DNA of 16,754 bases from positions 1 through 16,754 of IMG/VR virus record IMGVR_UViG_2939172355_000006; one strand, 5' to 3'. Both the position numbers and the translations under genes were made by a program. Source of the stretch: a virus. Its lineage: Duplodnaviria; Heunggongvirae; Uroviricota; Caudoviricetes. The notes below the pieces were generated by a model. It saw nothing but the letters and a program-made list of their open reading frames with translations, searched no databases and was not told the origin of the DNA. The stretch's first letter is position 1. The number at the start of each line of letters is the position of its first letter. Positions 904 to 14,315 of this stretch are shown here, in pieces.

Positions 904-984
904 AAATACTCCCGCTATCAACTGACGCTAGTATAACGGAAGCAAATCATCTGCAATGCATTAAGCAGCAGGCAAATTGAGGAT

Positions 985-1011
985 AAAAAAAACCCCCACA
1001 TCATGTGGGGG
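985..1011 (-). terminator. Rho-independent terminator upstream of fieF, probably the orphaned terminator of the native upstream gene (cpxP 3' end in E. coli)
   Basis: CCCCCAC (993-999) pairs with GTGGGGG (1005-1011) around a 5-nt loop. On the minus strand the hairpin is followed by eight T (992 down to 985). Confidence 0.75.
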
Positions 1012-1076
1012 AAGACAGGGATGGTGTCACAAAAAATCACCTAACCTACTGATATAAATGGATTTATATAAACCAC

Positions 1077-1096
1077 TGTCCACATAGCGTCCACAT
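1077..1096. repeat. Tandem direct repeat (T/C)GTCCACAT x2 with 11-bp phasing: putative integrase arm-type binding sites in the P' arm
   Basis: GTCCACAT occurs at 1078-1085 and 1089-1096. The reverse complement reads TGTGGAC(A/G), which I recall as the P2 Int arm-site consensus. The repeat lies between the ogr terminator and the bacterial junction. Confidence 0.5.
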
Positions 1097-1100
1097 CGAC

Positions 1101-1128
1101 CATAAATAAAGCCCCTCAACTGAGGGGC
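1101..1128 (-). terminator. Rho-independent terminator downstream of ogr (T-rich on both sides, possibly bidirectional)
   Basis: GCCCCTCA (1111-1118) pairs with TGAGGGGC (1121-1128) around a 2-nt loop. On the minus strand TTTATTTAT follows. On the plus strand TATTTTTGTG follows. The hairpin starts 12 nt after the ogr stop. Confidence 0.8.
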
Positions 1129-1139
1129 TATTTTTGTGA

Positions 1140-1358
1140 TCACATCCACATAATTTGCTGCCCTGACGGCAACGGGTGCGGCCTCACGGCGTGGACTTCT
1201 CCCGGCTTCACGATGTATCTCTGTACCGACTCATAAGTGATGAACGTGGCGCTGCAATTCACGTTCTGGCACTGGTGATAACGCTCTTTTGTCGTGTCAG
1301 TGATATAGCGGCTTGTACGCGCATGTGCGGCATGCTGGCATAAAGGACAATGAAACAT
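1140..1358 (-). CDS. ogr: Ogr, zinc-finger late-gene transcriptional activator of P2
   Basis: 72-aa product MFHCPLCQHAAHARTSRYITDTTKERYHQCQNVNCSATFITYESVQRYIVKPGEVHAVRPHPLPSGQQIMWM, as I recall P2 Ogr, with a CxxC...CxxxxC zinc motif. The true ATG is at 1356-1358. A perfect TATAAT lies on the minus strand at 1415-1410. Confidence 0.95.
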   Translation of the reverse strand: MFHCPLCQHAAHARTSRYITDTTKERYHQCQNVNCSATFITYESVQRYIVKPGEVHAVRPHPLPSGQQIMWM

Positions 1359-1470
1359 CGCGAGCACCTCTTCCGGTTTTGTTGATAGTGCCATTTTAGT
1401 TAAATTATCATTATAAAACAAAAAGATAAACAAAAGACATCACTCATAATCTTCTGTTTCGTACTCCACA

Positions 1471-2286
1471 TCAGAAACCGTCGCGGCGAATCAGCGTAGT
1501 GACGCCTGACTCGTTAAGCAGGTCAGCATCGGTGCCGGACTCCTGCAAATCCCAGAATACAGATGCGCTGATGCCGGTAACACCGTTCACCCCGACATTG
1601 GACAGCGTTTTATGCCAGCCCTGCTCCTGGTCGATTTTAGCGCGCAGCCCCAGCGCACGGGCGGTGGCATACGCGGTGGCGGTGGTACTGGTGACCGTAT
1701 CCCATGCGAGGAAATCCGGCCAGATGACCATCAGCTCACGCTGGCTGAAATTCTGGCGGTAGGCTTTCACCTCGGAAATGGTTTTACAGCCCCATGCGCT
1801 GATATACCCGAAAGCGCGCAGCTTCTGACAGACTGATGCCAGTGCAACAGCCACCTCTTTGGTATCCAGCCCCGGCACGCCGAGAATACGCGGTTTAACA
1901 CCGGTTACCGACTCCGCCGCCAGCAGGGCTTTCAGTCCGGTGTACTGACCGTTTTCGTCGGTGGTGCCGATGATATTGGAAACGGTCTGCGCAAGTTTCG
2001 CTTCCTCGTCGTCGCCGGTGCCGTCTTCCACACGCACGACAACGGTGACCGGTTTTGACTGGTCGGCGATGGCCTGCAACGATGCCGCCAGCGTGCCTTT
2101 TTTACCGGCCTTTGCAATTGCGCTCTGCACATTGGTAATCAGCACTGGTTTATTGAGGGGGAAGATTTCCGCATCCGCATCGCTGGCCGTGCAGACCATG
2201 CCAACAATGGCGGTGGATACGGTGGAAATGACGCGGGTGCCGTCGTTAATCTCCAGCACCTGCACGCCGTGATGATAGTCACTCAT
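1471..2286 (-). pseudogene. FI: Tail sheath gene FI, 3'-truncated (271 of about 396 codons)
   Basis: MSDYHHGVQVLEINDGTRVISTV...LLNESGVTTLIRRDGF matches the N-terminal two thirds of P2 gpFI. The reading frame ends abruptly at a TGA (1471-1473), directly abutting the sequence upstream of ogr. Confidence 0.9.
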
Positions 2287-2309
2287 CCGTTTAACTCCGT
2301 GGTTAATGG

Positions 2310-2380
2310 GTGCAACTATTTTCTGTTGGGCAGTGCATGAGACGCTATTTGACCTGGCTGGTCAGTGGATGAAACAACAG
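2310..2380 (-). promoter_or_regulatory. Putative Ogr-dependent late promoter PF upstream of FI
   Basis: On the minus strand there is an imperfect TGT-N12-(A/C)CA element (TGT 2376-2374, CCA 2361-2359). It sits about 55-60 nt upstream of the expected start downstream of an A/T-rich -10-like AAAATA (2322-2317). The position immediately after a terminator and before FI fits the P2 late-operon layout. Confidence 0.35.
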
Positions 2381-2410
2381 ATAAAGAAAAGGCAGGCAAT
2401 TCGCCCGCCT
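2381..2410 (-). terminator. Rho-independent terminator downstream of the Z/fun-slot cargo gene
   Basis: AGGCAGGC (2390-2397) pairs with GCCCGCCT (2403-2410) with one mismatch and a 5-nt loop. On the minus strand TTTCTTTAT follows. Confidence 0.6.
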
Positions 2411-2605
2411 GTCCTGATTTGTACTCACTCATTTTCCGACTGACAATTTACATAGCCAAAACGCTATCAAATCTGACAGTCTGCTTTGAGCGAGGAGCAG
2501 AGGTTAGTTTTAGTTAACCAAAATGATAAAAAGCAGTAGAAAAATCCGCTCATTACGTTATGGTTATAAGCCGCACATAATCATCCGAGCCAAATCCTCT
2601 TGATT

Positions 2606-3505
2606 TCAAAGAATTAGCACTTGCTCTTCACTAGAAACTATGGTTCTGACTTCACGCTCAAATATTGGATCCATTATCATTTTTCTATTTGTTGGAATAG
2701 TAAATTTACCGAGTACCATGACAATGCTACTCAACGGAAATAATTTTGGAGTAACATTTCCTAATTGAATCGTAGGATATATATTAAAGCCCCCTTTTAT
2801 CCTCATTGGCGAACCTTCAATGAAGTGTCGATAATTAAATTTCGCCATAGGGATTCTCGCCACATGCACTTTCATAATTACAGCAACCTGAGCTATTTTT
2901 ACTTTCTGGAGGTAAGTTGACAATCGTTCTAACTGCGTTGTTTCATAGAAAAAATCAGACCACGTTACAGTACTTGTTCCAGTAACAATTTTTATGCTGT
3001 TTCTCTTGTTGGGGTGAGCTTTTCCATATTCATAGATCTCCCGTAAGCTATCCATGTTCTTCACATAAGGGGCTTTCCGACCTCTCTTGACATAAACGCG
3101 GTCTGTAGTATCAGAAGGTGGATTTGCCTGCATAGCTGCAGCTTTTCTGCTTAATTTAGAGATATCATCTTCATCGAGTATATGTATACGGAATATATTA
3201 TTACCTGTGGCAAGCGCACGGCTGATATCATGACTGGAATCACTTGCATAAATTGTATTCAATCCTGAAGTTCCATACTGGCATAATTTGTCATGCGTGA
3301 AATTTTTTTCCAGTCTAAAGAAGGCGGGGATATGCAAGGTTTTATTAAAACTCCGACGAATATGGCTTTTGACATACACCAAATGAGCAGAGCAATTTGG
3401 GTCAGGACATTTGAGTGGATAGGGATTAACACTATAATTAAAAGTATTTACATTTACTAAAATCTGATTGTTATCAATAGCCTGAGTTATACGAATACCA
3501 CTCAT
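2606..3505 (-). CDS. Hypothetical 299-aa protein with an N-terminal Cys/His zinc-ribbon-like motif; accessory cargo in the P2 Z/fun slot
   Basis: Intact ORF with a strong SD (GGAGGAG 4 nt before the ATG at 3505). The region is clearly AT-rich relative to the flanking G and FI genes. The motif is C33-x4-C38 ... H71-x3-C75 (LKCPDPNCSAHL...FFRLEKNFTHDKLC). I recognise no enzymatic domain. Confidence 0.8.
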   Translation of the reverse strand: MSGIRITQAIDNNQILVNVNTFNYSVNPYPLKCPDPNCSAHLVYVKSHIRRSFNKTLHIPAFFRLEKNFTHDKLCQYGTSGLNTIYASDSSHDISRALATGNNIFRIHILDEDDISKLSRKAAAMQANPPSDTTDRVYVKRGRKAPYVKNMDSLREIYEYGKAHPNKRNSIKIVTGTSTVTWSDFFYETTQLERLSTYLQKVKIAQVAVIMKVHVARIPMAKFNYRHFIEGSPMRIKGGFNIYPTIQLGNVTPKLFPLSSIVMVLGKFTIPTNRKMIMDPIFEREVRTIVSSEEQVLIL

Positions 3506-3644
3506 TACTCCTCCATAAAGATAGGCGCAAGCATTTAGTAATAAACCATTAACATGCCGAGATCATACCCGATCATTGAAATGTAAACACTCCCCTAAGA
3601 CGGCTGCTGGCATAATATTTTATGACATCAGCAATGCCCACCTC

Positions 3645-3686
3645 TGGCACAGAGTGGACTGTCAGATTAGGCTTTACTCTGTGCCA
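3645..3686. repeat. Perfect 11-bp inverted repeat with a 20-nt spacer, between G and the cargo gene
   Basis: TGGCACAGAGT (3645-3655) pairs with ACTCTGTGCCA (3676-3686). No U-tract follows on either strand, so it is not a canonical intrinsic terminator. Confidence 0.6.
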
Positions 3687-3720
3687 TAGATATGTAAGCC
3701 CACACTAGAGCTCATACAAC

Positions 3721-4248
3721 TTATTGCGGCATTTCCGGCCATTCAGGATTTGCAGGATCCACACGACTGACCAGAACACTATAGCGTTCCCATGCCTCCA
3801 GTCGACTACGCTCCTCATCTGTTGCCATATTCAGCCTGACCGCGCGCTCCAGCGGCAAAATCACGGATTCAGCTTCGGAAAGCAAAGCTGCCTTATGTAA
3901 TTCCGCCAGTTTCTGCTGTTCGTCTGCCGTATAAATCCGCTTAATCACGGCACCATCCTTAAACATCCATTTACCTGAGTCGTCAGCACGTCGGTTGGAG
4001 GTAATATCAGGAACCTCAACAACGCTAAAACCTTCAGGATTAAGCGTTGAAGCATCTCTGGTGATAGCGACAATAATATTATTTTCATCGTAAACAATCT
4101 TTATTGTGTCTGGCTGAAAGTTCTTCACTTCCTCATACCAGTTTTTTCCGTCCTCAGAGTAAAGCCAGATAACTCCGTGTTTCTTTGTTAACTCATACTG
4201 TTCCAGTGTTTTAGCGTTACCCGCTTTTATGTTCTTTAAGTGCATCAT
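3721..4248 (-). CDS. G: Tail fibre assembly chaperone gpG
   Basis: 175-aa product [40 protein letters not shown]...[12 protein letters not shown]2 gpG-like. It starts 1 nt after the H stop codon. Confidence 0.9.
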
Positions 4249-4249
4249 A

Positions 4250-5331
4250 TTAAACGCTCGCTACATTATACCAGGTGCCATTTATATACTTTTGAACGGG
4301 TCTGTAATAAACGCCCGCTATATTATCGGCAGAGTTGGACCCTGTATCCTGAACATTAATACCAGACAATACATGACCTGACGGGCACTGGAAATTCCAT
4401 GTTTGCCAGTTGTTCACTCCATAATATTGCTGTGACCCAAGTCGAACATCTTTCACATATCTGGAATCAAAATTGCCATAGTTGCCAGGAATAACTTGCG
4501 AGCCACAAAGCCAGTTACCGTTATTATCCATGTACGCCTGACCATCGGTGCCATTGGCTGTCCTTGAGTTATTAATCATGTAGATGCCAAATTGCTTATT
4601 TCCCAGACCGCCAATCATAAATTTGCGGTCGGCATGGTCCTGACGGAGCAAAGCCTGAGCACCATCAGTGGATACCGCATTACGTCCAAAAATAACATTC
4701 TGGTCACGCATATGAATCCACATGCCTGTGCTGCTGTTAATTGCAAGGCGGTTTGCGTACACCCATGCGTTAGTTGTTATATCTCCTGTAACATCCAGAG
4801 CGTGCCCCATAGTTATGCGACCAGTTCTGAGATTCAACGAAAAGGGGCGTAGTGGCCCGATATCACCATTTTCCCCCTCATTCTCTCGTGTGGGGATAAT
4901 ATGCAGGCATTCTTCAGAACGGCGAAAAATAGCACCAAAGGATGAATTAAAGATTCTCAGTGCATTGACTGTCGATATTTTTACTTCACTGCTGAAAAGG
5001 GCTTTAACAAGGACAGACAAAGCATCCCATTTAAGATTCATCAGGTCTTTTGTTGTGGTGCCCTGACGGCTTCTCCATTTGAAATATTCATTGCCGTTGT
5101 CGCCTGTTTCAAACCACATGTATGAATCAGTGTCACCATCGGCATCATTTTTAAATCCAATCTTCGCCCAGTCAGTATTTCGAATCCAGGCAAGGATTGA
5201 GTCGTTTTCAAAAGTAAGTCCACCGGACAAGGTATCGCCATTTTTTTGCACGGCGTTCCCGGCTCGGTTTACCGTTTCCTGTAAACCGAGATATTCGATA
5301 ACGGCGGCAACGGTCGATTTAGCCAGAATAC
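4250..5331 (-). pseudogene. H: Tail fibre gene H, 5'-truncated (about the C-terminal 360 codons of about 669)
   Basis: My own translation of the open frame upstream of the ORF-track GTG reads ...ILAKSTVAAVIEYLGLQETVNRAGNAVQKNGDTLSGGLTFENDSILAWIRNTDWAKIGFKND..., matching the central region of P2 gpH. There is no start codon and the N-terminal half is absent. The receptor-binding C-terminus diverges from my recollection of P2. Confidence 0.85.
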
Positions 5332-5691
5332 CGTGAGCGCGCTGGTTTCAGGTTCATACTCAATCACCGCCCCGTCAGGGAAACGGATATGCAGGGCATC
5401 CGCCGACGCAGACGGCGCGGGGTTATCGCCGGAATAAATCCCCGGCAGAACGAACGCCGTGTCGAGTTCACCACCCACGGCCAGAATCAGCACCTGTTCC
5501 CCCACGGAAGGTGCCCACCATGTGCGCGAACGCCCGGCGCGATGGGTCAGCCACTGAAGCCAGTCGGTGCACATGCCGCCGGTCTGCACACGGCAGCGAC
5601 CGGCATTAAGGTCGGTTTCGACGATAATGCCGGTGCGGATCATGTTGCGCAGTGCGCGCGCGAGTTCCTGAATATTTGCGAGAGTGTTCAT
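5269..5691 (-). pseudogene. V: Baseplate spike gene V, 3'-truncated (121 of about 211 codons, then an out-of-frame tail)
   Basis: MNTLANIQELARALRNMIRTGIIVETDLNAGRCRVQTGGMCTDWLQW...EYEPETSALTV matches the P2 gpV N-terminus from the ATG at 5689-5691. After codon 121 (about 5329) the frame reads FWLNRPLPPLSNISVYRKR*, which is H-gene DNA in the wrong frame. Confidence 0.85.
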
Positions 5692-5699
5692 GCGTGTGA

Positions 5700-5760
5700 G
5701 ATTGCACAATATATAAAAGTTATGCTATCTGGATTCATTTGTAGAACGACCATACAACAT
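5700..5760 (-). promoter_or_regulatory. Putative Ogr-dependent late promoter PV
   Basis: On the minus strand there is a TGT (5756-5754)...ACA (5742-5740) dyad with an 11-nt spacer (the consensus I recall is N12). TATATT follows at 5713-5708, just upstream of the V start. The region overlaps the divergent upstream region of the 5775 gene. Confidence 0.35.
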
Positions 5761-5774
5761 TCGAGGAGAGCGTA

Positions 5775-6560
5775 ATGTTCAGTGATAATGTGACTAATGC
5801 GTGGTGGTTTATCTCTTTGTATCTATTTTTATTAATAGCATTAACATTTGTTACCTTTGGTAAAAGTAATCTTATGAGGTTTATTGCACATCATTTCAAT
5901 CTTGAGTATTCAGACAGAAAGTTAAAAATGCTCGACAAAAAATGGCGCGACATTCAACTATTTAAAATAATTAACGGAATCAATGTATCAGGCATCGAAG
6001 ATGTGAGAATGATACAGCAGGGGCTGATTGATGGAAAACTAAAAACATCGTATTTTTTCCTTACTCGCTTCTGGGGTGACATAACAAAACCACCACACAT
6101 AATTAAAACAACAATTGTAATTCTGGCCAGTATTATTTATATTCTCTTCGCATGTTATATACACAATGAACAATCCGCTATAGTAAGGGATGCCATAGGT
6201 ATACCATATAAAAATATGATGTACTATGTTTATAGTGACAAAGTTCTTTTATCCTTCAAAAATAAAACGGTTGAATTTAATAAAACTTATAGCCTTGCCG
6301 ATTGCAAGAGTCTGCAAAACGTATTTATAAAAGACACACTTCCCGAGATCGCCTGCAATAAGCTCTTACAGCTAAACAAGGAGGACTCCGAATGGTTAAG
6401 TCAGGAGATTAAAGATAATAACAGCTACAGAAAAACATTATTAATAATGTCCCTAACCTATTTCATTTCAGGTCTGCTTATATTCCTGTCATATACAAAA
6501 TTCCTTTACGCCAATAAGAAGGTTTTAGAATACAAAGCATCAAATAAAAACCACTCATAA
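5775..6560 (+). CDS. Hypothetical 261-aa membrane protein (three predicted TM helices); accessory cargo in the P2 orf30 slot between S and V
   Basis: Intact ORF with an SD (GAGGAG 5763-5768). It is very AT-rich and lies on the opposite strand to the flanking late genes. Hydrophobic segments are AWWFISLYLFLLIALTFVTFG, IIKTTIVILASIIYILFACYI and TLLIMSLTYFISGLLIFLSY. I recognise no catalytic motif. Confidence 0.8.
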   Translation: MFSDNVTNAWWFISLYLFLLIALTFVTFGKSNLMRFIAHHFNLEYSDRKLKMLDKKWRDIQLFKIINGINVSGIEDVRMIQQGLIDGKLKTSYFFLTRFWGDITKPPHIIKTTIVILASIIYILFACYIHNEQSAIVRDAIGIPYKNMMYYVYSDKVLLSFKNKTVEFNKTYSLADCKSLQNVFIKDTLPEIACNKLLQLNKEDSEWLSQEIKDNNSYRKTLLIMSLTYFISGLLIFLSYTKFLYANKKVLEYKASNKNHS

Positions 6561-6570
6561 ACCTCTAAAT

Positions 6571-6597
6571 ATTGAGCGACCAGCACGGCCGCTCAAT
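6571..6597. terminator. Hairpin between the convergent genes at 5775-6560 and S; possible bidirectional terminator
   Basis: ATTGAGCG (6571-6578) pairs with CGCTCAAT (6590-6597) around an 11-nt loop. The flanking T-tracts are weak. Confidence 0.4.
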
Positions 6598-6631
6598 GCT
6601 TAATTGCGCATCAGCCTCTGCCTGGATAAAA

Positions 6632-7084
6632 CTAACGCTCAAGGTGAGCCAGGATAATCTCTTCAATCATCTGCACATCCTCACCGGTAAAGCCGAGCAG
6701 AGGACGCGCCGGATAATCAATTTTCTTACCGTCTTTCCGGTTTTCTTCCGACAGACCGAACTGATGCACACTGGCGATTTTCGGTGACTTCCCGCCGTAA
6801 AACTCCATTGATGCCTGTTCCGGGCTGGCGCGGATATGCAAAAAACGACTGGTGATAAGTTTCGCAAACATTTTTCGCTTAACACGACCGGTCTTTTTTC
6901 TGGCGCTCTGCTGCTGGCGTGGCGCGTAGGGTGTGCCGTCCGGAGTTTTCTGTGCCATCACCCGACGCTGCTGACTCTGCCGCAGGCGTTTCGCCAGTTC
7001 GGCACTCAGTCGCCGACGCCCTGACGGTGACAGCGATTCAATCAGTCCGGTCAGCCGGTCTTCAAAACGCTTAAACTCATTCAT
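6632..7084 (-). CDS. S: Tail completion protein gpS
   Basis: 150-aa product MNEFKRFEDRLTGLIESLSPSGRRRLSAELAKRLRQSQQRRV...MIEEIILAHLER, P2 gpS-like. It overlaps the end of R by 8 nt. Confidence 0.9.
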   Translation of the reverse strand: MNEFKRFEDRLTGLIESLSPSGRRRLSAELAKRLRQSQQRRVMAQKTPDGTPYAPRQQQSARKKTGRVKRKMFAKLITSRFLHIRASPEQASMEFYGGKSPKIASVHQFGLSEENRKDGKKIDYPARPLLGFTGEDVQMIEEIILAHLER

Positions 7085-7544
7085 CCCACTTGCTCACCAG
7101 TTCGCCATTGATATACAGCTCCATCGGGCGGGTGACCGGCTCCGGCGGCGGAGGTTCCGGGATATTCTTCACATGCAGCGCGCCGTCCACCTCACTGACC
7201 AGCGTGCGCTCGGTCAGCATCAGGCTGATACTGATATCAAAGCTGCTGTCATTGTTGATGTCCGCATAAAACGTGAAGCCCTTTTTCTGGCCTGCGTCGG
7301 TGGTCATGATGTCGGGCTGATTTTCCCGCAGCCACGCTAGCACCGGCACGATGAGCAGGTCAAAATCACCGGTAAAGTCGGTCACAATGACATTGAGCGT
7401 GTAACGCTTTTCAAATGACAGCGACCTCGCCAGTGTGGAGGCAATACTCCCGTTATCCACGAATATCCGCAGCATCTCGGGACTGGTTTTCAGCACCGTG
7501 ACAGCATCAGTCAGCGCCCTGCGCAGGCTGTCGGGTTTGAGCAT
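7077..7544 (-). CDS. R: Tail completion protein gpR
   Basis: 155-aa product MLKPDSLRRALTDAVTVLKTSPEMLRIFVDNGSIASTLA...LYINGELVSKWDE, P2 gpR-like. Confidence 0.9.
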   Translation of the reverse strand: MLKPDSLRRALTDAVTVLKTSPEMLRIFVDNGSIASTLARSLSFEKRYTLNVIVTDFTGDFDLLIVPVLAWLRENQPDIMTTDAGQKKGFTFYADINNDSSFDISISLMLTERTLVSEVDGALHVKNIPEPPPPEPVTRPMELYINGELVSKWDE

Positions 7545-7797
7545 CGTTTTCGTCCTGACAGTGTTTAATCATTTTTACCTGGCTGGCACAGCGTGCCAGC
7601 GCGTTCTCAAGCTGCCGGATATCAGCACTTAAATCGCCGTTCGTCTCCGGGTCACTGCCCGGCATCGGGCAAAGGCTCACTTTCGGGCAGGCGTTGTGGA
7701 CAATCACTGGCGTCGGCGCAGGCCGGGCGCTGGTGCAACCGGCGCACAGCATCAGGCAGGTCAGCGCCGTACCAGCGGCGAAAATCTTCGTTTTCAT
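7507..7797 (-). CDS. lysC: LysC, outer-membrane lipoprotein spanin subunit (Rz1-like), embedded out of frame in lysB and running into R
   Basis: 96-aa product MKTKIFAAGTALTCLMLCAGCTSARPAPTP... with a lipobox (LCAGC). It starts at the internal ATG at 7797 of the 7507-7914 ORF. The overlapped architecture is known for P2 lysB/lysC. Confidence 0.8.
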   Translation of the reverse strand: MKTKIFAAGTALTCLMLCAGCTSARPAPTPVIVHNACPKVSLCPMPGSDPETNGDLSADIRQLENALARCASQVKMIKHCQDENDAQTRQPAQGAD

Positions 7798-8077
7798 TAA
7801 GTAACCTCGTGATGGTTTTCTCGCGCTGTGCTTCACGCTTCGCGGCGTTCTCCAGCTCCTGACGCAGTGCCACCTGCGCCAGCTCGTTTTTGTCTGCCCT
7901 GGTAAGGGCAACATGAAGCTGATTTTTCAGCATGGTGATGGTCGTCTGCTGTTCACTGGCGACGTTGTTCGCCCTGTCCAGCGAGGCGCGCAGGCTGGCA
8001 TTTTTGTGTTTCACCAGAAACAGACCGGCCACCGCCAGTGATAACAACACGACCAGCACAATCATCAGCTTTGACAT
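7652..8077 (-). CDS. lysB: LysB, inner-membrane spanin subunit (Rz-like)
   Basis: 141-aa product MSKLMIVLVVLLSLAVAGLFLVKHKNASLRASLDRANN... with an N-terminal TM helix and a coiled-coil region. P2 LysB-like. Confidence 0.9.
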   Translation of the reverse strand: MSKLMIVLVVLLSLAVAGLFLVKHKNASLRASLDRANNVASEQQTTITMLKNQLHVALTRADKNELAQVALRQELENAAKREAQREKTITRLLNENEDFRRWYGADLPDAVRRLHQRPACADASDCPQRLPESEPLPDAGQ

Positions 8078-8490
8078 GGTTCCCGCCCCTCAAAACGCTG
8101 ACAGCAGGCCGTACGTATCAGCCGGAAGAACACCGATGCCACGAGATAAATCAGCGCGGTAAAAATCCCCCCGGCAGCGACCAGCGAGATAAACGTCGCC
8201 ACCATCACTACCAGAGCCACTGACCGCCTGCGCCACGGCACCGGCTGCAAAAACAGCGCCGTGACAATCTTCACGGCCAGCGATTCCGGCGGCAGCTCCC
8301 GCCCGTAACGTTCCAGTACATACTCAGTGGCATACACGCCGACACCACCGGCAACCACACAGATAACCGTCGCCAGAATCGCCCAGGCGGCGACAAAACT
8401 GACGGCCACGCTCTGCGGGTAAATCAGGGACAGTGCCAGCATCAGCGCCAGCGACACGTTCAGCATCAGTGAAAGGGATAATTTCTTCAT
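8065..8490 (-). CDS. lysA: LysA, membrane protein of the P2 lysis cassette (lysis timing, antiholin-like)
   Basis: 141-aa product MKKLSLSLMLNVSLALMLALSLIYPQSVAVSFVAAWAILATV... with multiple TM helices. P2 LysA-like. Its upstream partners Y (holin) and K (endolysin) are absent. Confidence 0.85.
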   Translation of the reverse strand: MKKLSLSLMLNVSLALMLALSLIYPQSVAVSFVAAWAILATVICVVAGGVGVYATEYVLERYGRELPPESLAVKIVTALFLQPVPWRRRSVALVVMVATFISLVAAGGIFTALIYLVASVFFRLIRTACCQRFEGREPCQS

Positions 8491-9364
8491 GGTGTTTACT
8501 CCGTTTACCGGTCTGGCAAAAAGCCTGCGTGCTGCCGTGCATCACAGCTCACCGATTTACGTCAAACGTAACATTCTGGCCTCAACGTTTATCCCACACC
8601 CGTGGCTTTCTCAGCAGGATTTCAGCCGCTTTGTGCTGGATTTTCTGGTATTCGGTAATGCGTTTCTGGAAAAGCGTTACAGCACCACCGGTAAGGTCAT
8701 CAGACTGGAAACCTCACCGGCAAAATATACCCGCCGTGGCGTGGAGGAGGATGTTTACTGGTGGGTGCCGTCCTTCAACGAGCCGACACCTTTCGCGCCC
8801 GGCTCCGTGTTTCACCTGCTGGAGCCGGATATTAATCAGGAGCTGTACGGTCTGCCGGAATATCTCAGCGCCCTTAACTCTGCCTGGCTGAATGAGTCGG
8901 CCACGCTGTTCCGCCGCAAGTATTACGAAAACGGCGCTCATGCCGGATATATCATGTACGTCACTGATGCCGTGCAGGATCGCAACGATATCGAAATGCT
9001 TCGCGAAAACATGGTGAAGTCGAAAGGCCGCAACAACTTTAAAAACCTGTTTCTCTATGCCCCGCAGGGGAAAGCTGACGGCATTAAAATTATCCCGCTC
9101 AGTGAAGTGGCAACGAAGGACGATTTTTTTAATATCAAAAAAGCCAGCGCCGCTGACCTGCTGGACGCGCACCGCATCCCCTTTCAGTTGATGGGCGGCA
9201 AGCCGGAGAACGTCGGGTCGCTGGGTGATATTGAGAAAGTAGCAAAGGTCTTTGTCCGCAATGAGCTTATCCCGTTACAGGACAGGATCCGCGAGATAAA
9301 CGGCTGGCTCGGTCAGGAGGTCATCCGATTTAAAAACTACTCACTGGACACTGACAACGGCTGA
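8489..9364 (+). pseudogene. Q: Portal gene Q, 5'-truncated (lacks about 55-57 N-terminal codons)
   Basis: From about 8504 the product FTGLAKSLRAAVHHSSPIYVKRNILASTFIPHPWLSQQDF...IRFKNYSLDTDNG matches P2 gpQ from about residue 57 to its C-terminus. The apparent ATG at 8489-8491 is created by the CATG shared with the lysA start. Confidence 0.85.
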
Positions 9365-9369
9365 ACATC

Positions 9370-9391
9370 GCCGCCTGCGGGCGGCTTTTTT
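9370..9391 (+). terminator. Rho-independent terminator downstream of Q
   Basis: GCCGCC (9370-9375) pairs with GGCGGC (9380-9385) around a TGCG loop. TTTTTT follows at 9386-9391. The hairpin starts 6 nt after the Q stop. Confidence 0.85.
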
Positions 9392-9533
9392 ACACCCCGT
9401 CATCACGCCCTCACACGTTCGCCACTGTACAAAACACCCCGCAGACACACCAACGCCCCGGCAGGCCGACTAAACGCCATCACGACGCGCTCAGACGCTG
9501 AAAAAATAAAATCAGCACCACCGCCAGCGCGCA

Positions 9534-9552
9534 GTGCTTTCCCCGCCTCGCC
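9534..9552 (-). other. P2 cos site (19-nt cohesive-end sequence)
   Basis: The reverse complement of 9534-9552 is GGCGAGGCGGGGAAAGCAC, which is the P2 cohesive end as I recall it. It sits at the expected position just beyond Q. Confidence 0.8.
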
Positions 9553-9779
9553 CGCCCGCTTCATGGGTCGGTTTTGATGCAATTCCAAAAGCCGTCCAAA
9601 CTCTCTTAGGCTAAATGTCCAACGAGAAAATAGTTCTTTGAATGTGAATGCATTTTAATGCAGAGTTATGCCCAGCATTTTTGTACACTTCGATGTATCA
9701 AATGCGCTGCAAACGATCAAATATGGATGTTTTATCAAGCATCCCCCAAAAGATATTTACATCATCCCATGAGGTTAAG

Positions 9780-10853
9780 ATGGATAACAAAATCGTAGAA
9801 ATTGAGACAAATAAGCTTGATTTTGACCCTAAAAACCCACGTTTCTTTCGTCTCAATGATGCCAGTAACGCTGCAACAGTCATTGAGGAAATGTTAGATG
9901 ACGAAAGTGTCCACGATCTAATGCTATCAATCGGTCAGCAAGGTTACTTTCCTGGAGAACCTTTATTGGCAGTAAAAAGCAATGGAAACTACATCGTGGT
10001 TGAGGGAAACAGACGCTTAGCTGCTGTAAAGTTGCTCAATGGAGATCTGCTTCCTCCAAAAAGAAAACTTAAAGGTGTGCAAGAAATCATTGATGATACT
10101 ACCAATAAACCTAAGAAGCTTCCCTGCATCATTTATGAAAACCGAGAGGATGTACTGAGATATATCGGTTATCGTCATATAACTGGGGTCAAAGAATGGG
10201 ACTCATTATCTAAAGCCAAATACCTTAAAGAGTTATGTGATACTTTTTATTCACATGAGCCTAAAGAGATAGTATTAAAAAATCTGGCTCGTGAGATTGG
10301 GAGTAAACCACATTATGTTGCAACACTTCTCACTGCACTGAACTTATATGAAGTCGCGCATGACCATGAGTTTTTTAATTTACCCATGAAGGCTTCTGAC
10401 GTGGAATTTTCATATATAACCACAGCTTTGGGATATTCAAAAATCACAAACTGGTTAGGTCTACAGGATAAAAAGGATTTTTTAGACCCAAATTTAAATG
10501 AAGAAAACCTTAAGCGTTTATTCTCTTGGTTTTTTGTGCCTGACCAACAAGGTAGAACCATCATCGGTGAGTCTCGAAGAATAAAAGATATTGCAGCAGT
10601 GGTTGAGAAACCCGAAGCAATTGAAATTCTCATGAAAAGTTCAAACTTGGATGAAGCATATCTATATACCAGCGGAGAAAGAGAAGCATTAGATAAAGCA
10701 CTAAACGCAGCTAGTGTTAAATTAAGAGTAGTTTGGGATATGCTACTTAAAGCTAAAGAATTAACATTAGAGCATGAAGAGGCTGCATCTGAAATTTTTG
10801 AGATGTCAAAAAATATTAGAAATCAGATCAGAAGCAAAAGGGAGGATGATTGA
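9780..10853 (+). CDS. ParB/Srx-like N-terminal domain protein with a central HTH-like region (357 aa); accessory cargo, first gene of a two-gene operon
   Basis: The preferred start is the ATG at 9780, preceded by GAGG (9771-9774). The N-terminus is typical of ParB-like domains (LDFDPKNPRF) and the arginine-patch motif VVEGNRRLAAVKLL has GNRR at 10005-10016. A helix-turn-helix-like segment (LAREIGSKPHYVATLLTAL) follows. The gene is AT-rich. Confidence 0.75.
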   Translation: MDNKIVEIETNKLDFDPKNPRFFRLNDASNAATVIEEMLDDESVHDLMLSIGQQGYFPGEPLLAVKSNGNYIVVEGNRRLAAVKLLNGDLLPPKRKLKGVQEIIDDTTNKPKKLPCIIYENREDVLRYIGYRHITGVKEWDSLSKAKYLKELCDTFYSHEPKEIVLKNLAREIGSKPHYVATLLTALNLYEVAHDHEFFNLPMKASDVEFSYITTALGYSKITNWLGLQDKKDFLDPNLNEENLKRLFSWFFVPDQQGRTIIGESRRIKDIAAVVEKPEAIEILMKSSNLDEAYLYTSGEREALDKALNAASVKLRVVWDMLLKAKELTLEHEEAASEIFEMSKNIRNQIRSKREDD

Positions 10854-10857
10854 GATT

Positions 10858-11883
10858 ATGATTACAAATCTTGATTCAATGCCTTCTAATGAGCCTTATT
10901 TATGGGCTGATTATATTGAGATATTGGCCTTAACTAATATCGACAGGTCATTCAGTCGAGGAGACCTATATAGCACACTGCAAGCTCAACCCGAAGCAGT
11001 ACTAGCTGAAACAGATGAAGCAGAAGAAGAGGGCGTTTATGATGTTGATGATGAAAATGATACGCCTGTACGCAAGAGAACAAAACGAAGTGTTAGTCGA
11101 GCATATACTGACAGAAAGTGGAGCTATGCGATAGGCTTCATACGACAACGCATTGATTTATTTGGGGATAGTTACCCTTTTACTTTATCAGAAGACAACG
11201 ATACTGTAGAGTTACGTGATATATCAGAAAAGCCACTGGAACATTTAGAAAGACTATATTTAGCTTTACTAATCTGTGCTAACATAAAATATGTCAACAT
11301 AATGAGCAGAAGAGAGATAACGCGCAGTTTTGAACTAATTAGTTTACCTATTTTTGAAAGCCTAATGCCTAGCGGTAGCATAATAAAAGCATGCTGGGCT
11401 TCTGGTGGTCAAGCGGCCCCTTACACTGGAACTCTATATAATAAATTTAAGAGTATTGCTTCCGATATCCGTTGCACAGCGAACTTCAAAGAACGAGATT
11501 TCAGTCGAGGAAATAGTGGTGACGGAGGCCTTGACATAATTGCCTGGCATCCAATGGGAGATCAACGAGATGCCATCCCTATTTCTTTTGTTCAGTGTGG
11601 CTGTTCTCAAGAAGAGTGGGAAGCGAAGCAGCTTGAGGCCTCACCTGCGATGCTCTACAGTAAATTCCCCGTAGCTCACCGATGGGCAACTTATTATTTC
11701 TTACCTCAAGATCTACGATGGATAGATGGTGAGTGGGCGCATAAAAATAAGTTAGGCGATGCTATTTTTGTTGATCGCCTAAGATTAATCAATTTAACCA
11801 GAGCATCTGATAATATTGATCACAGTCAAAATATTAGCTATCTAGATATCATCCTTGATCCTTCCAGCGCGATCGCTGCTTAA
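10858..11883 (+). CDS. Hypothetical 341-aa protein with a C-terminal Mrr/PD-(D/E)xK-like nuclease motif; accessory cargo, second gene of the operon
   Basis: The ATG at 10858 lies 5 nt after the upstream TGA (10851-10853), with GGAGG at 10841-10845. An alternative ATG at 10846 overlaps the upstream gene. The motif GNSGDGGLDIIAW-x13-ISFVQCGC (about 11512-11600) resembles the Mrr catalytic core (D-G-G-hD ... hQxK), but Gly replaces the expected Lys. An acidic stretch ETDEAEEEGVYDVDDENDT lies near the N-terminus. Confidence 0.7.
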   Translation: MITNLDSMPSNEPYLWADYIEILALTNIDRSFSRGDLYSTLQAQPEAVLAETDEAEEEGVYDVDDENDTPVRKRTKRSVSRAYTDRKWSYAIGFIRQRIDLFGDSYPFTLSEDNDTVELRDISEKPLEHLERLYLALLICANIKYVNIMSRREITRSFELISLPIFESLMPSGSIIKACWASGGQAAPYTGTLYNKFKSIASDIRCTANFKERDFSRGNSGDGGLDIIAWHPMGDQRDAIPISFVQCGCSQEEWEAKQLEASPAMLYSKFPVAHRWATYYFLPQDLRWIDGEWAHKNKLGDAIFVDRLRLINLTRASDNIDHSQNISYLDIILDPSSAIAA

Positions 11884-12818
11884 TCCCATAAATCTGGAAG
11901 GTTTCTAGCAACCGCCTCAAACAATGGAGGCGGTACTGCATTACCTACCACAGTATATTTCATATTAATAGAAGCCCGTTCAGTTTCTGGGAAAATTAAA
12001 TCCCCAAAACCTTGTAAAATAGCAGCCTCTCGATAGCTAAACCTACGAGCTGGTGCATCCGAAGTAAATTGCCACTTATCAGGTCCCAATTTTTCTAATG
12101 TTGGACTTATTGGATGTAGAGGCATATGTCTAGGATTTGCAACAATTGTTTTAGATATCTGATCCCAATCTTGCCTACGGTTTCGCGATAGATAATACCA
12201 ATGAAAATCGGCGTCATAAAACTCGCCAACAGGCCAAACAGGCATATGCCCAATAGCATCACGAATTGTGGAATATGGTGTCAAACCATCACCATGTGTT
12301 GGTTTTGGAAATTTGTATGTAATACCGTAGTCCTTTCGTATTCCTACGATAAAGATTCGCTTCCTATCTTGGGATACCCCATAATGGGACGCATTCAGAA
12401 TTTGCGAGCTTACTGTATAACCTGCTTCTTCGAAAACTTTGAATTGATCCTTTAATAAATGCTCAAAGTTACGCCTTACCATACCAGAGACATTCTCTAC
12501 AATGAATGCTTTTGGCTTAATTTTACTCAAAGCACGGGCAAACTCTAAATATAGTGTATTAATCTTTCTATCTGCCTTCCTTGCCCCACCTTGACTAAAT
12601 CCTTGGCAAGGATAGCATCCGATGAGCAACTCAGCAGAAGGGAACGACTGGAGCCCTGAGATATCGCCCAAAATGTAGTCAGTTTCAGGATGGTTTTCTA
12701 AGTAAACGTCCCTTGCGTAAGGCAAAATATCATTTGCCATAAGCACATTGAAACCTGCGTTCAAAACTCCCGCATCAGAACCACCACATCCAGAAAAAAG
12801 TGAAACTACAGTTGGCAT
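11880..12818 (-). CDS. DNA (cytosine-5)-methyltransferase
   Basis: 312-aa product with the canonical m5C MTase motifs: I FSGCGG, IV PCQGFS (catalytic Cys71, about 12606-12608), VI ENV, VIII QDRKRIFIVG, IX RRFSYREAAILQGF, X GNAVPPPL. A strong SD (AGGAGG) precedes the ATG at 12818. Its stop overlaps the stop of the convergent 10858-11883 gene. Confidence 0.92.
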   Translation of the reverse strand: MPTVVSLFSGCGGSDAGVLNAGFNVLMANDILPYARDVYLENHPETDYILGDISGLQSFPSAELLIGCYPCQGFSQGGARKADRKINTLYLEFARALSKIKPKAFIVENVSGMVRRNFEHLLKDQFKVFEEAGYTVSSQILNASHYGVSQDRKRIFIVGIRKDYGITYKFPKPTHGDGLTPYSTIRDAIGHMPVWPVGEFYDADFHWYYLSRNRRQDWDQISKTIVANPRHMPLHPISPTLEKLGPDKWQFTSDAPARRFSYREAAILQGFGDLIFPETERASINMKYTVVGNAVPPPLFEAVARNLPDLWD

Positions 12819-13060
12819 TGACCCCTCCTAAAAACCGACCGCGTATTATAGCGAAACACCCCGTTGGGAAAAGCTAGATTTTGCCAAGTCTTGATATTCT
12901 CACGTTTTAGTAGTTGTGGCCATCTTTAACGAGAAAAAGATAAAATTGACTTCTCATTAATTTTCAATAGGTTTAATTGTAAGCTCAAACTAACGCCTCG
13001 CGACACTCGTTATTCAACCCCGCCAGCCCTGAAAACAAGTTTCACGACTGGCGGCGTTCT

Positions 13061-13267
13061 CTATCGTCTGCGTTGTGGTGGCGCAACTCTGGACTGACCG
13101 ATATGGTTAAACCGCCCGTAATTATCCCGGACTATTTCGGCACACCCGACCAGCTCATCGGGCGTCAGATTTTCGTTGACCATAATCCGCTGTAAACGCT
13201 GAACAATAGCCATCAGCTTGATATTTTTAGTTTTATGGTGCGGTATCTCGCCTGGTATTCTGTGCAT
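13061..13267 (-). CDS. Small hypothetical early-region protein (68 aa)
   Basis: The ATG at 13265-13267 overlaps the upstream TAA in a TAATG coupling motif. The GC content matches the phage backbone. I recognise no domain. It is the last backbone ORF before the AT-rich cargo, at the position where orf83/A would follow in P2. Confidence 0.5.
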   Translation of the reverse strand: MHRIPGEIPHHKTKNIKLMAIVQRLQRIMVNENLTPDELVGCAEIVRDNYGRFNHIGQSRVAPPQRRR

Positions 13268-13719
13268 TATCCAAGCCACCCGTTTTGCTGTGCACGCTCC
13301 ATCTGTTCATCTGAATAGTTCCATGCTCCATCCGTGGCAACCATTGCCCCGCCAGACATCCCCGTCTCTGGTTCATACATAACAGCAAGGCCGAGCTGAT
13401 GCATAATTTCATGATTAATTCTGAATACCAGACCACGCTCACTAAGTTCTTTCCAGTTCACAATCTCACATGCGCCTGTATTAAGCCGCTCAATACTTAG
13501 CAAGACATAATCTTCCAGCCAGTCTGACAGGTCAGTAACATCTGTTATCCGGGCTTCAACCTTTCGCCCCGTATACACACCCTGCACCCATTCATGCAAA
13601 ATCAACGTGTCCCCGCGCTCATAATTACGGTCATTTTTCCGAAACTCTGCGCGTTTCTTTCCTTCCAGCACAAGGTCAAAATATTTTGCGTGCAGCTTTA
13701 CCTCGTGAATTTTTGCCAT
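13267..13719 (-). CDS. DUF3850 (ASCH/PUA-like) domain protein with a C-terminal HExxH-containing extension (150 aa)
   Basis: [44 protein letters not shown] matches the DUF3850 signature as I recall it (HELKI.P.YF..v..G.K.fE.RkNDR.f.vGD.l.L.E). HEIMH is encoded at 13413-13399. The ATG at 13717-13719 overlaps the upstream TAA (TAATG). Confidence 0.75.
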   Translation of the reverse strand: MAKIHEVKLHAKYFDLVLEGKKRAEFRKNDRNYERGDTLILHEWVQGVYTGRKVEARITDVTDLSDWLEDYVLLSIERLNTGACEIVNWKELSERGLVFRINHEIMHQLGLAVMYEPETGMSGGAMVATDGAWNYSDEQMERAQQNGWLG

Positions 13720-14252
13720 TATGTCCACTCCATTACTGTTGAGAATCCCGGCCACTCATCAGCGACCGGATACGTGAATTTTTTCCCGTCATAATTTACG
13801 GTCGCTCCACGCGCCAGCGCCTCAAGCTCCCATCGCTGAGGCCTGATACCGTTCTGAGCAAGGTCAACGCGGATACGGGTGATTTGCATTCGTTCCGACC
13901 GGGTCAGTCTGGCCGACGGTGCAATTTCATGTGTTTTTAACGGGCTTCCGTTTCTTTGTTGACGATTTGGTGTTTTCAGGCCGTGTTTTAATGCTCCCCT
14001 GAGCGCCCTCACGACCTCCGGGTCATTCCATTCGATAACACCGTCATCAACCAGATTTAGCACTGCTGCGGCGTGCTCAGAAGGTGTGGGAGCCGGTAAC
14101 GAAGCATCACTACCGGTGAGCTTTGTGATGTGGCGAATCATGGCGTCAAGATGAGAAGAAAAGCGCGTTGCTGCGTCGGCCTGTGCTTCGGTTCTGACCT
14201 GTTGCAGCAGTAATGCGTATTTACCGCACTGATTTTCAGAAACTGTATGCAT
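13719..14252 (-). CDS. Hypothetical early-region protein (177 aa)
   Basis: The ATG at 14250-14252 has GGAG 6 nt upstream. The ORF-track start at 14285 is a TTG. The N-terminal segment ([26 protein letters not shown]) is reminiscent of the small P2 orf80-type proteins. The rest is unrecognised. Confidence 0.65.
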
Positions 14253-14315
14253 GACTTTCTCCAGGCAAAAAGAAGCCCCGCACAATTAAGTGCGTTAAAA
14301 ACTCTGGTTAATTAC

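Follow-up and report, generated by a model that had tools for sequence, protein, structure and literature searches.

Broad anti-phage defence has been validated for PD-lambda-5 of E. coli ECOR7, which was listed as "ParB/HEPN, methyltransferase" and described as a compacted RM+Abi system (Vassallo et al. 2022). It has two genes, one of which fuses the HEPN effector to ParB. A ParB-superfamily nucleotide-binding domain also works with a nuclease in GmrSD, SspE, DndI and BrxU, under a logic tied to DNA modification; each of these is one polypeptide joining a DUF262 domain (DGQHR/DGQQR) to a DUF1524/HNH His-Me nuclease. SspE and DndI are the partners of phosphorothioation systems, and modified DNA stimulates both of these ParB-superfamily NTPases (PMC11662687). 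The CTP-dependent clamps ParB, KorB and Noc share an N-domain fold with an arginine patch, a central HTH and a C-terminal helical, dimerisation-like domain. LlaJI and BsuMI are NTP-dependent multi-subunit RM systems with m5C methylases, in which restriction is split over subunits, one of them an NTPase, and the subunits used are McrB-type AAA+ GTPases or helicase-like proteins.

The window, that is the whole 16,754-nucleotide stretch analyzed, contains a degraded P2-like prophage with three genes directly 3′ of cos, in the known defence hotspot of this element (Table 1). The cassette is best explained as cargo of the P2 old/tin hotspot, and we consider it probable that it is an RM-like defence and addiction system built around a two-subunit restriction module. 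The RM-like interpretation of the sequence-only reading is supported, and the open reading frames of all three genes were found at the coordinates it had given. Its description of the cassette as undescribed was not sustained, since the genes are orf98, orf96 and mth of phage Wphi (99.9% identical) and the cassette is already in the P2-hotspot table of Rousset et al., neither named nor discussed there. Our literature search found the cassette in such hotspot tables only and no experimental test of it.

The lower GC content previously judged by eye was confirmed by measurement: 9553-13060 has 0.397, the stretch 6600-9552 has 0.556, and the sequence to the right has 0.469. The 19-nt P2 cos sequence is the left boundary of the hotspot and lies outside the system; the first base of the linear phage record OU784549 is exactly window position 9553. 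At the right edge, GC climbs after about 13000, and at query 3436-3508 (window 12988-13060) megablast again finds other P2-like phages. Gene A is indeed damaged beside the cassette, being present as a truncated copy (13719-14285), and so is the portal gene (8489-9364) at the opposite flank.

Table 1. Features of the cassette and its borders (positions in the window)
Feature	Position	Strand	Remarks
P2-type cos site	9534..9552	.	19-nt sequence GTGCTTTCCCCGCCTCGCC read in the window
Leader of the two-gene operon, with its putative promoter	9553..9779	+	
Gene 1, ParB/KorB-like	9780..10853	+	357 aa; Wphi orf98, WP_000368931, phrog_3694
D-P-K-N-P-R-F motif, gene 1 aa 16-22	9825..9845	+	conserved in homologues
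E-G-N-R-R motif, gene 1 aa 75-79	10002..10016	+	conserved in homologues
Gene 2, partner	10858..11883	+	341 aa; Wphi orf96, WP_001350076, phrog_3984
Acidic low-complexity insertion, gene 2 aa 43-86	10984..11115	+	13 D/E in 44 aa
G-D-G-G-L-D, gene 2 aa 221-226	11518..11535	+	start of core beta strand
Q-C-G-C-S...W..K, gene 2 aa 246-257	11593..11628	+	conserved residues
Gene 3, DNA cytosine-5 methyltransferase	11880..12818	-	312 aa; Wphi mth, WP_001143634
Methylase upstream region and right edge of low-GC island	12819..13060	-	

Genes 1 and 2 are coupled in translation and co-evolve tightly as a pair. The ATG of gene 1 (9780) has GAGG just before it, and that of gene 2 follows the gene 1 TGA (10851-10853) after a gap of 4 nt, with GGGAGG at 10840-10845 ahead of it; RefSeq sometimes calls an alternative start at ATG 10846. 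The leader 9553-9779 gave no sigma-70 consensus match scoring at least 9/12. Genes 2 and 3 converge, with stop codons overlapping within TTAA at 11880-11883, as had been read.

The structure model of gene 1 predicts a ParB N-domain followed by an HTH domain for DNA binding, both in agreement with the domains proposed from sequence, and then a helical hairpin at the C-terminus. It makes the protein a canonical ParB_N/KorB-type protein and not a DUF262 one. The motifs picked out by the sequence-only reading are in place (NPRF at aa 19-22, GNRR at aa 76-79, 10005-10016). F15, D16, N19, P20, R21 and F22 are invariant across 38 homologues, and D..NPR is invariant in 14 divergent sequences, the dnd-linked ones included; by its position, this motif resembles ParB box I. 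EGNRRL is invariant across all aligned homologues and EGNRR aligns with and resembles GERR of Spo0J/ParB, the box II arginine patch to which nucleotide phosphates bind. The protein nevertheless departs from ParB, KorB and Noc in having GNRR for GERR in box II and YLGYRHITG...W in place of box III, and its sequence scores below the family cut-offs. It also differs from them in context, with a linked nuclease-fold protein and methylase, no ParA partner and no partition setting; no ParA-like ORF was found in the window region. A partition or regulatory context of the ParA/parS or KorA kind was not found either, the neighbours at the loci examined being the partner and a methylase or dnd genes.

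The closest validated relative is PD-lambda-5, which likewise joins a DNA methyltransferase to a ParB-fold protein and comes from E. coli. Residues 1-151 of gene 1 match 24 PADLOC PD-Lambda-5_A models (best E=2.5e-24), a match that covers about one third of these profiles and ends around position 160 of 440-500; we counted this homology in favor of the RM-like reading. Unlike PD-lambda-5, gene 1 runs on into the HTH domain and helical hairpin, has no HEPN match in Pfam, and is one of three genes, the effector being a separate protein of PD-(D/E)xK fold; the 25 PADLOC models that fit the methylase best do not include PD-Lambda-5_B. Residues 41-327, the ParB domain and following helical region, match positions 58-342 of PDC-M38A (E=6.5e-25), a 715-position PADLOC profile about twice the length of gene 1. 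PDC-M38 is a candidate system for which our search found no literature. The sequence-only reading had offered GmrSD and SspE as analogues, and PD-lambda-5 proved closer. Membership of the GmrSD/SspE/DndI group was rejected for want of a PF03235 or PF07510 match in Pfam; in contrast to its single polypeptides, the locus encodes two proteins, one with a canonical ParB_N domain carrying EGNRR and an HTH, the other with the PD-(D/E)xK fold.

The model of gene 2 begins with a winged-helix-like region and ends in a domain of PD-(D/E)xK fold, which agrees with the nuclease fold suggested earlier. The acidic N-terminal patch is real, but it is missing from many homologues, variable in the rest and modelled at pLDDT 68-79. 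The Mrr-type core that had been read here stood in part: GDGGLD and QCG with Gly for Lys were borne out (at 221-226 and 246-248 of the 341-aa protein; the earlier D250/D254/Q274 numbering referred to a longer ORF), whereas the Mrr_cat assignment was not, as PF04471 gave no match in gene 2. The same search found Mrr_cat near two surveyed loci (L068, L072), and an Mrr-type Type IV enzyme was rejected. GDGGLD is a candidate metal-binding Asp motif on the basis of its sequence, with G221, D222, G223 and D226 invariant and GD(G/A)GxD present in all divergent homologues. The model places a strand at aa 227-230 beside it, another at aa 242-247 and a helix at aa 251-257. Q246 stands at the usual (D/E)xK place, Gly248 at the usual Lys position and the invariant K257 in the helix after the Q246 strand. 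Q246, W254 and K257 are invariant also in the dnd-linked homologues; some homologues lack C247 and C249, and E159, invariant in closer homologues, is replaced in two of the 14 divergent sequences. With Gly for the canonical Lys, nuclease activity of gene 2 is not assured; we infer only that K257 might substitute for it.

Profile searches against Pfam, PADLOC and NCBIfam gave no full-length match of genes 1 and 2 to a characterized restriction or defence family, which would have refuted the earlier reading, and PADLOC gave no match at all for gene 2. The same profiles detected no sequence similarity to systems of the LlaJI/BsuMI type, from which the locus differs in that its candidate NTPase has a ParB/Srx fold; m5C-based protection and restriction split over subunits would be common to both. 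DptFGH/DndFGH were rejected because NCBIfam gave no dpt-family match for genes 1 and 2, while its TIGR03237 found DptH at a surveyed locus (L063); NCBIfam also contains DptF and DptG models. A classical single-protein Type II enzyme is disfavored by the obligatory ParB-like partner.

Gene 3 is a complete m5C methyltransferase, as had been stated, matching PF00145 at 9.9e-62 and TIGR00675 at 1.8e-54 and carrying motifs I, IV, VI, VIII and X as FSGCGG (aa 8), PCQ (aa 70-72, with Cys71), ENV (aa 108), QDRKR and GNAV. M.HaeIII is closest to it (1.6e-48) over the full length, target-recognition region included. The best PADLOC model is DruM of Druantia type II (DruM2, 1e-110); that system was rejected, as no large helicase ORF was found in the window and genes 1 and 2 matched no Dru model.

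Our linkage survey comprised 72 loci from Pseudomonadota, Campylobacterota, Acidobacteriota, Chloroflexota, Bacteroidota and others. Wherever the contig reaches, the gene immediately 5′ of the partner is the ParB-like one. The earlier reading had named joint occurrence of the three genes as a test, and a C5 methylase was found within 5 kb of the pair in about 58 of the 72 loci, usually directly adjoining and convergent, with ends that overlap or nearly abut it. At eight methylase-less loci, DNA phosphorothioation (dnd or dpt) genes take its place: seven have dnd genes, one of these showing DndB/C/D/E equivalog matches beside the pair (L074), and at the remaining one DptH alone was seen before the contig ends (L063). 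The pair almost always adjoins a DNA-modification module, either a C5 methylase or dndBCDE, and we counted the dnd/dpt loci, as cases of an alternative modification module, in favor of the RM-like reading. This link to phosphorothioation genes is invisible from the window alone. Three loci have no adjoining modification gene, L030, L039 and L057, the last with its nearest C5-methylase-like match about 7 kb off.

These data bear on the view that unrelated genes have come to lie side by side by chance, the pair working by itself as a Type IV or abortive system of two genes and the methylase being an orphan or having an anti-restriction role. Hotspots do accumulate unrelated cargo, the few pairs without an adjacent modification gene sit in defence islands with SIR2-HerA, Mrr or HipA, and the DruM match indicates a methylase clade used by other systems. 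Against this, the methylase is adjacent across phyla, a missing methylase is replaced by another modification system, and a Pseudomonas phage carries the full triad at another place in its genome. In complete E. coli genomes, three alleles occupy the same P2 hotspot, always as three genes (103, 36 and 48 genomes, 187 in all); the present cassette, intact or IS-disrupted, accounts for 103 of the 5426 genomes. The conserved linkage therefore disfavors the orphan methylase that the sequence-only reading had kept as an alternative, and we regard such independence as very improbable.

Within the triad, pairwise identities correlate strongly between the ParB-like protein and its partner (Spearman 0.85) and less so between these two and the methylase (0.48 and 0.45). 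In most loci the methylase is conserved above the pair, with identities of 60-84% compared with 38-64% for the ParB-like protein and 30-49% for the partner, the pattern usual for methylase versus restriction genes. The other two hotspot alleles have methylases 97.8% and 76% identical to gene 3 and pairs 31-34% and 23-25% identical to this pair (31%/23% in the second E. coli allele, the one with the 97.8% methylase). The loose pair-methylase coupling and the near-identical methylase with 23-31% identical pairs count against the RM-like reading, in that they make it hard to see how the pair would recognize the methylase target. Three IS insertions were seen, two in the partner gene, one in the operon leader (IS2, about 160 bp upstream of the gene 1 ATG in one E. 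coli genome, L077) and none in the methylase. We counted the linkage, the pair correlation, the conservation ranking, the exchange of pairs between alleles, the completeness of the triad, the insertion pattern, the predicted folds and the invariant motifs in favor of the RM-like reading.

The pair could instead be regulatory or maintenance machinery, in which a KorB- or DndB-like DNA binder and an inactivated, DNA-binding restriction-fold partner control how the adjacent modification genes are expressed or targeted. The missing (D/E)xK Lys would fit, Menshen NsnA is a documented case of inactive restriction-fold domains that serve for DNA binding alone, and the link to methylase as well as dnd genes could mean that the pair controls modification. 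We find this improbable, however, as D222, D226, Q246, K257 and the DRxR motif of gene 2 are invariant down to 24% identity, three dnd-linked loci (L070, L073, L074) already encode DndB, the IS insertions fall selectively in the pair genes and leader, fast divergence of the pair beside a stable methylase is typical of arms-race effectors, and the cassette sits in a defence hotspot. With DndB at these loci and DptH at L063 and L070, the pair is not the sole candidate effector there.

In another reading, the pair would not be a classical restriction enzyme but an effector, either licensed by modification or of the abortive-infection kind. Its ParB-like member would detect the host's own m5C or phosphorothioate mark, or that a phage has removed or blocked this mark, and turn the partner to a nicking or toxic state, as proposed for SspE/DndI and for the "RM+Abi" PD-lambda-5. 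One and the same family of pairs goes with two marks of unrelated chemistry, divergent members adjoining phosphorothioation systems like those that SspE and DndI serve, and loose lineage coupling fits the sensing of a mark or state better than co-evolving specificity; the stimulation of DndI and SspE by modified DNA and the description of PD-lambda-5 by Vassallo et al. point the same way. On the other hand, gene 1 is predicted to be of the canonical ParB_N/KorB type, the cassette holds no HEPN or other typical Abi effector, the IS pattern and higher methylase conservation suit plain RM equally, and sequence does not tell the two logics apart. We consider such an effector unlikely.

Under the preferred RM-like model, the products of genes 1 and 2 would form one restriction complex. 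The ParB-like subunit would contact DNA via its HTH domain and its nucleotide pocket (NPR, EGNRR) would act as an NTP switch or clamp, licensing the PD-(D/E)xK subunit (D222/D226, Q246, K257) to cut or nick unmarked DNA. A more specific version, which we put forward tentatively, makes a ParB/KorB-type nucleotide-gated clamp the DNA-scanning subunit of a restriction enzyme, in a modification-agnostic module that evolution has coupled to an m5C methylase or to Dnd phosphorothioation: once loaded on unmodified DNA, the clamp would shut or slide when it binds NTP, and would bring in or switch on the dedicated nuclease. If true, this would be a new class of NTP-dependent restriction beside the Type I/III ATP motors and the McrBC GTPases. 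In the RM-like model, methylation by gene 3, possibly at GGCC-like sites, would mark host and prophage DNA as self, and the ratio of restriction to methylase expression may be under antisense control through the overlap of the convergent 3′ ends. E. coli W, the host of Wphi, has neither mcrBC nor mrr, a background that agrees with an active m5C methylase and that we counted in favor of this model.

The three genes of the cassette next to cos (9553-13060) form a genuine system that is conserved and occurs widely, and that is most likely a restriction-modification-like defence with a ParB-fold subunit. A sequence-only reading had placed three open reading frames in a low-GC island at this site. 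All three were present where it located them, every sequence motif that it cited was found in the window proteins, and the island was confirmed by a GC content of 0.397 over 9553-13060 versus 0.556 in the 3 kb on the left. Gene 1 encodes a ParB/KorB-like protein of 357 aa, gene 2 its partner of 341 aa and gene 3 an m5C methylase of 312 aa; genes 1 and 2 are called the pair below, and the three genes together the triad.

Positions of the cassette genes, surrounding prophage features and related alleles (L-numbers are homologous loci or records compared with the window)
Feature	Position	Strand	Remark
P2 cos sequence	9534-9552		Read in the window sequence
Gene 1	9780-10853	+	ORF; GAGG before ATG
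Gene 2	10858-11883	+	ORF; ATG 4 nt past the gene 1 TGA and 12 nt past GGGAGG
Gene 3	11880-12818	-	ORF; stop codon overlaps the gene 2 stop in TTAA
Portal gene, truncated	8489-9364		Prophage degradation
gpA remnant fused to another fragment	13719-14285		Prophage degradation
299-aa ORF	2606-3505	-	Second low-GC island
261-aa ORF	5775-6560	+	Lowest-GC stretch of the window
Triad allele, phage vB_EcoM-12474III	L075 1402-4438		P2 hotspot
Triad allele, Yersinia phage HQ103	L079 227-3279		P2 hotspot
Methylase ORF, HQ103 RefSeq record	L079 2338-3279	-	Intact yet unannotated

The gene 1 protein scored weakly on ParB_N in profile searches, and sequence and profile searches against PDB chains returned weak matches to ParB N-domains only. 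Its first 151 residues matched the PADLOC model PD-Lambda-5_A (E=2.5e-24), and residues 41-327 matched the PADLOC candidate PDC-M38A. The AlphaFold model had a pLDDT of 86.8, and the C-terminal end of the protein consists of two long helices. The motifs D..NPRF, EGNRRL and YLGYRHITG..W were invariant down to homologues of ~31-33% identity, with EGNRRL occupying the position of the GERR of ParB.

Sequence and profile searches, including those against PDB chains, gave no meaningful match for gene 2. Because a Foldseek search of its model (pLDDT 90.6) against the PDB also returned nothing significant (best E 0.036), the assignment of a nuclease fold to this protein is moderate, not strong. The order of its secondary structure elements and its invariant residues agree with a nuclease core: the first helix carries E159, GDGGxD marks the start of a strand, and the strand after it has Q246 at its end. 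Gly replaces the usual Lys, and an invariant K257 is found in the following helix. A zinc site formed by H231, C247, C249 and H274 was rejected, since divergent homologues do not conserve these residues. The missing canonical Lys and the modest fold scores are among the main weak points of reading the pair as a restriction module. A regulatory, non-nucleolytic pair, acting in a KorB- or DndB-like way, is quite unlikely in our view. When 1.84 billion cluster representatives (clusters at 50% identity) were covered by a gene 2 profile search, 1494 relatives were recovered, 806 of them with E <=1e-10, and the best 150 of the 1494 were nearly all standalone and 300-380 aa in length, a few being shorter fragments.

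One genome per species was scanned for gene 2 relatives. The 72 loci found were from Pseudomonadota, Campylobacterota, Acidobacteriota, Armatimonadota, Chloroflexota, Bacteroidota and others, and a ParB-like gene lay directly upstream of the partner in every locus whose contig extends that far. A C5 methylase was encoded within 5 kb of the pair in ~58 of the 72 loci, mostly convergent and abutting but sometimes co-directional or upstream. The eight loci without a methylase (L063, L064, L066, L067, L070, L072, L073 and L074), which hold the most divergent pairs, were from Helicobacter, Arcobacteraceae, Thiovulum, Thalassotalea, Marinomonas, Salinibius and an uncultured Alteromonadales MAG. Seven of these eight had dnd phosphorothioation genes adjoining the pair, and DndB, C, D and E were identified by NCBIfam equivalog matches in L074, from Thalassotalea. 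In the eighth, L063, only DptH is visible before the contig ends. DptH is present in L070 too, together with an HNH endonuclease that depends on phosphorothioate, and both L066 and L072 encode a DndI-like GmrSD protein. A Swt1-like HEPN protein is also encoded in L066, and an Mrr homologue in L072. No modification gene adjoined the pair in three of the 72 loci (L030, L039 and L057), all in defence islands, with L057 showing a weak C5-methylase-like match ~7 kb from the pair; in L052 and L068 the contigs end before the downstream side of the pair is visible.

The pair is almost always linked to a DNA-modification module, which takes one of two chemical forms, and it is very unlikely that its adjacency to the methylase is a coincidence. 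In five loci from Burkholderiales and Rhizobium (L021-L024 and L031; ~8900-13400), a 1048-aa N6_Mtase-domain protein is encoded between the partner and a C5 methylase that lies farther away and shares 41-42% identity with that of the window (tblastn); this arrangement may represent a variant of the system with four genes. Yersinia phages L-413C and HQ103 also carry the triad, as does, at a different genomic position, Pseudomonas phage vB_PaeM-D14A.

Across 48 complete triads, pairwise identity of the ParB-like protein correlated strongly with that of the partner (rho = 0.85), and methylase identity correlated at only 0.48 with the ParB-like protein and 0.45 with the partner. Genes 1 and 2 form a translationally coupled, co-evolving pair, one with a ParB/KorB fold and the other with a restriction-enzyme fold. 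Three triad alleles occupy the same hotspot in E. coli P2-like prophages, each present only as a complete triad, and together they are found in 3.4% of complete E. coli genomes, O145:H28 outbreak strains included.

Triad alleles in E. coli, with protein identities relative to the Wphi type
Allele	Complete E. coli genomes	Methylase	ParB-like	Partner
Wphi type	103	reference	reference	reference
vB_EcoM-12474 / L-413C type	36	97.8%	31%	23%
HQ103 type	48	76%	34%	25%

IS insertions were found in three E. coli copies, with IS5 in the partner gene (L076 and L078, apparently at the same site and perhaps from one event) or IS2 ~160 bp upstream of gene 1 (L077), and the methylase was intact in all three. 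In restriction-modification systems, likewise, the modification gene is stable, the effector pair diverges fast and can be exchanged, and decay hits the effector. The reading that we favour, and consider somewhat probable, is that the pair is the restriction half of such a system: the ParB-like subunit would bind DNA, its nucleotide pocket serving as a switch or clamp, the partner would act as a nuclease, and the modification mark would shield self DNA. The loose coupling of the pair and methylase lineages and the use of one pair family with two unrelated marks somewhat favour a pair that is licensed by modification or acts abortively, as has been suggested for SspE, DndI or PD-lambda-5, but we hold this to be rather unlikely.

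By its sequence, gene 3 encodes a complete m5C methyltransferase of the ordinary kind. Among solved structures M.HaeIII (GGCC) is its closest relative, with an alignment over the full length that includes the target-recognition region (E=1.6e-48); the SRNR segment of gene 3 and a downstream Arg line up with base-contacting residues of HaeIII. A GGCC-like target is thus only a lead. GGCC was the scarcest 4-mer palindrome in a depletion test (0.73), with GATC (0.75), TGCA (0.78) and GTAC (0.78) similar, and no motif for this methylase was found in the E. coli methylome papers searched. The cassette contains no CCGG versus 73 sites in the whole window, an absence attributable to chance: on the identical copy L002, a Markov model predicts only 1.7 sites for the span of the three genes, and homologous cassettes are not depleted (observed/expected 0.93). 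The best PADLOC model for gene 3 was DruM of Druantia type II (1e-110); because it outscored every Type II methylase model, this methylase clade seems to be common to more than one non-classical defence system.

Among validated systems PD-lambda-5 comes closest; its authors list it as "ParB/HEPN, methyltransferase" and describe it as a compacted RM+Abi system (Vassallo et al. 2022). The cassette is not a member of it, as the ParB N-domain is the sole common part and the effector differs, being a HEPN domain fused to ParB in PD-lambda-5 and a separate protein of restriction-enzyme fold in the cassette. A GmrSD/SspE/DndI-type identity was ruled out because the cassette has neither a DUF262 nor an HNH domain. 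Menshen and the two-gene GmrS/GmrSD system, both of which use DUF262, were rejected, as were Mrr and Druantia, and the pair does not appear to belong to DptFGH either. That ParB-superfamily domains associate with nucleases and DNA-modification systems is an established idea (Makarova et al. 2013). The literature searched contained no description of the split architecture with a canonical ParB/KorB-type protein, of its breadth or of the dual m5C/phosphorothioate coupling, REBASE and current DefenseFinder models being outside this comparison.

If the pair is a restriction module, a large family of at least 800 protein clusters (50% identity, E <=1e-10) has gone unrecognised by the defence-finding tools used, and ParB/CTPase-fold switches, known from chromosome segregation and gene silencing, would gain a role in self/non-self discrimination. 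The same methylase with three very different putative restriction pairs, and one pair family with m5C or phosphorothioate, amount to a natural experiment in modularity that could reveal how restriction modules read marks. The cassette would then also have consequences for phage therapy, for transforming clinical E. coli and for the interpretation of m5C methylomes.

The 3.5-kb cassette shares 99.9% identity with the right-hand end of coliphage Wphi, in which its genes are annotated orf98, orf96 and mth, and is 100% identical to record OU784549. The Wphi-type cassette was found in 103 of 5426 complete E. coli genomes, usually beside the same shortened portal gene. The prophage of the window is heavily degraded (1-9364 and 13061-14285), with truncated portal, gpA, sheath and gpV genes and fragmentary tail-fibre genes. 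The shortened portal gene and an intact cassette are annotated likewise in three other E. coli chromosomes inspected, and the degraded remnant is therefore common to several strains.

The cassette occupies the P2 hotspot that Rousset et al. and Vassallo et al. describe, with the portal gene on one side and gene A on the other. It has already been catalogued, since the accessions of its proteins are entered as "hypothetical + DNA_methylase + hypothetical" in the P2-hotspot supplementary table of Rousset et al.; the word ParB is absent from their main text. No published test of the cassette was found in the literature searched, nor any description of the triad in that on PD-lambda-5, Wphi, ParB CTPase/restriction-modification, PDC-M38, the P2 hotspot or dndBCDE with ParB, and PHROGs assigns genes 1 and 2 to families of unknown function. 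The genome paper of E. coli W, the Wphi host, terms the strain "restriction minus" for its lack of hsdMRS, mcrBC and mrr and leaves the Wphi cassette out of consideration (PMC3032704). An active m5C methylase of the prophage would be compatible with this lack of m5C-dependent restriction.

Two further ORFs of the window lie in low-GC DNA. The 261-aa ORF (GC 0.33-0.35) had no credible Pfam match and falls in phrog_2407, of unknown function; with a gpV fragment on one side and gpS on the other, it appears to sit on a deletion junction. The 299-aa ORF (GC 0.35-0.40), with no Pfam match and assigned to phrog_7195, also of unknown function, sits between a tail sheath fragment and a tail-fibre assembly gene, at the P2 Z/fun position named defence hotspot 2 by Vassallo et al.
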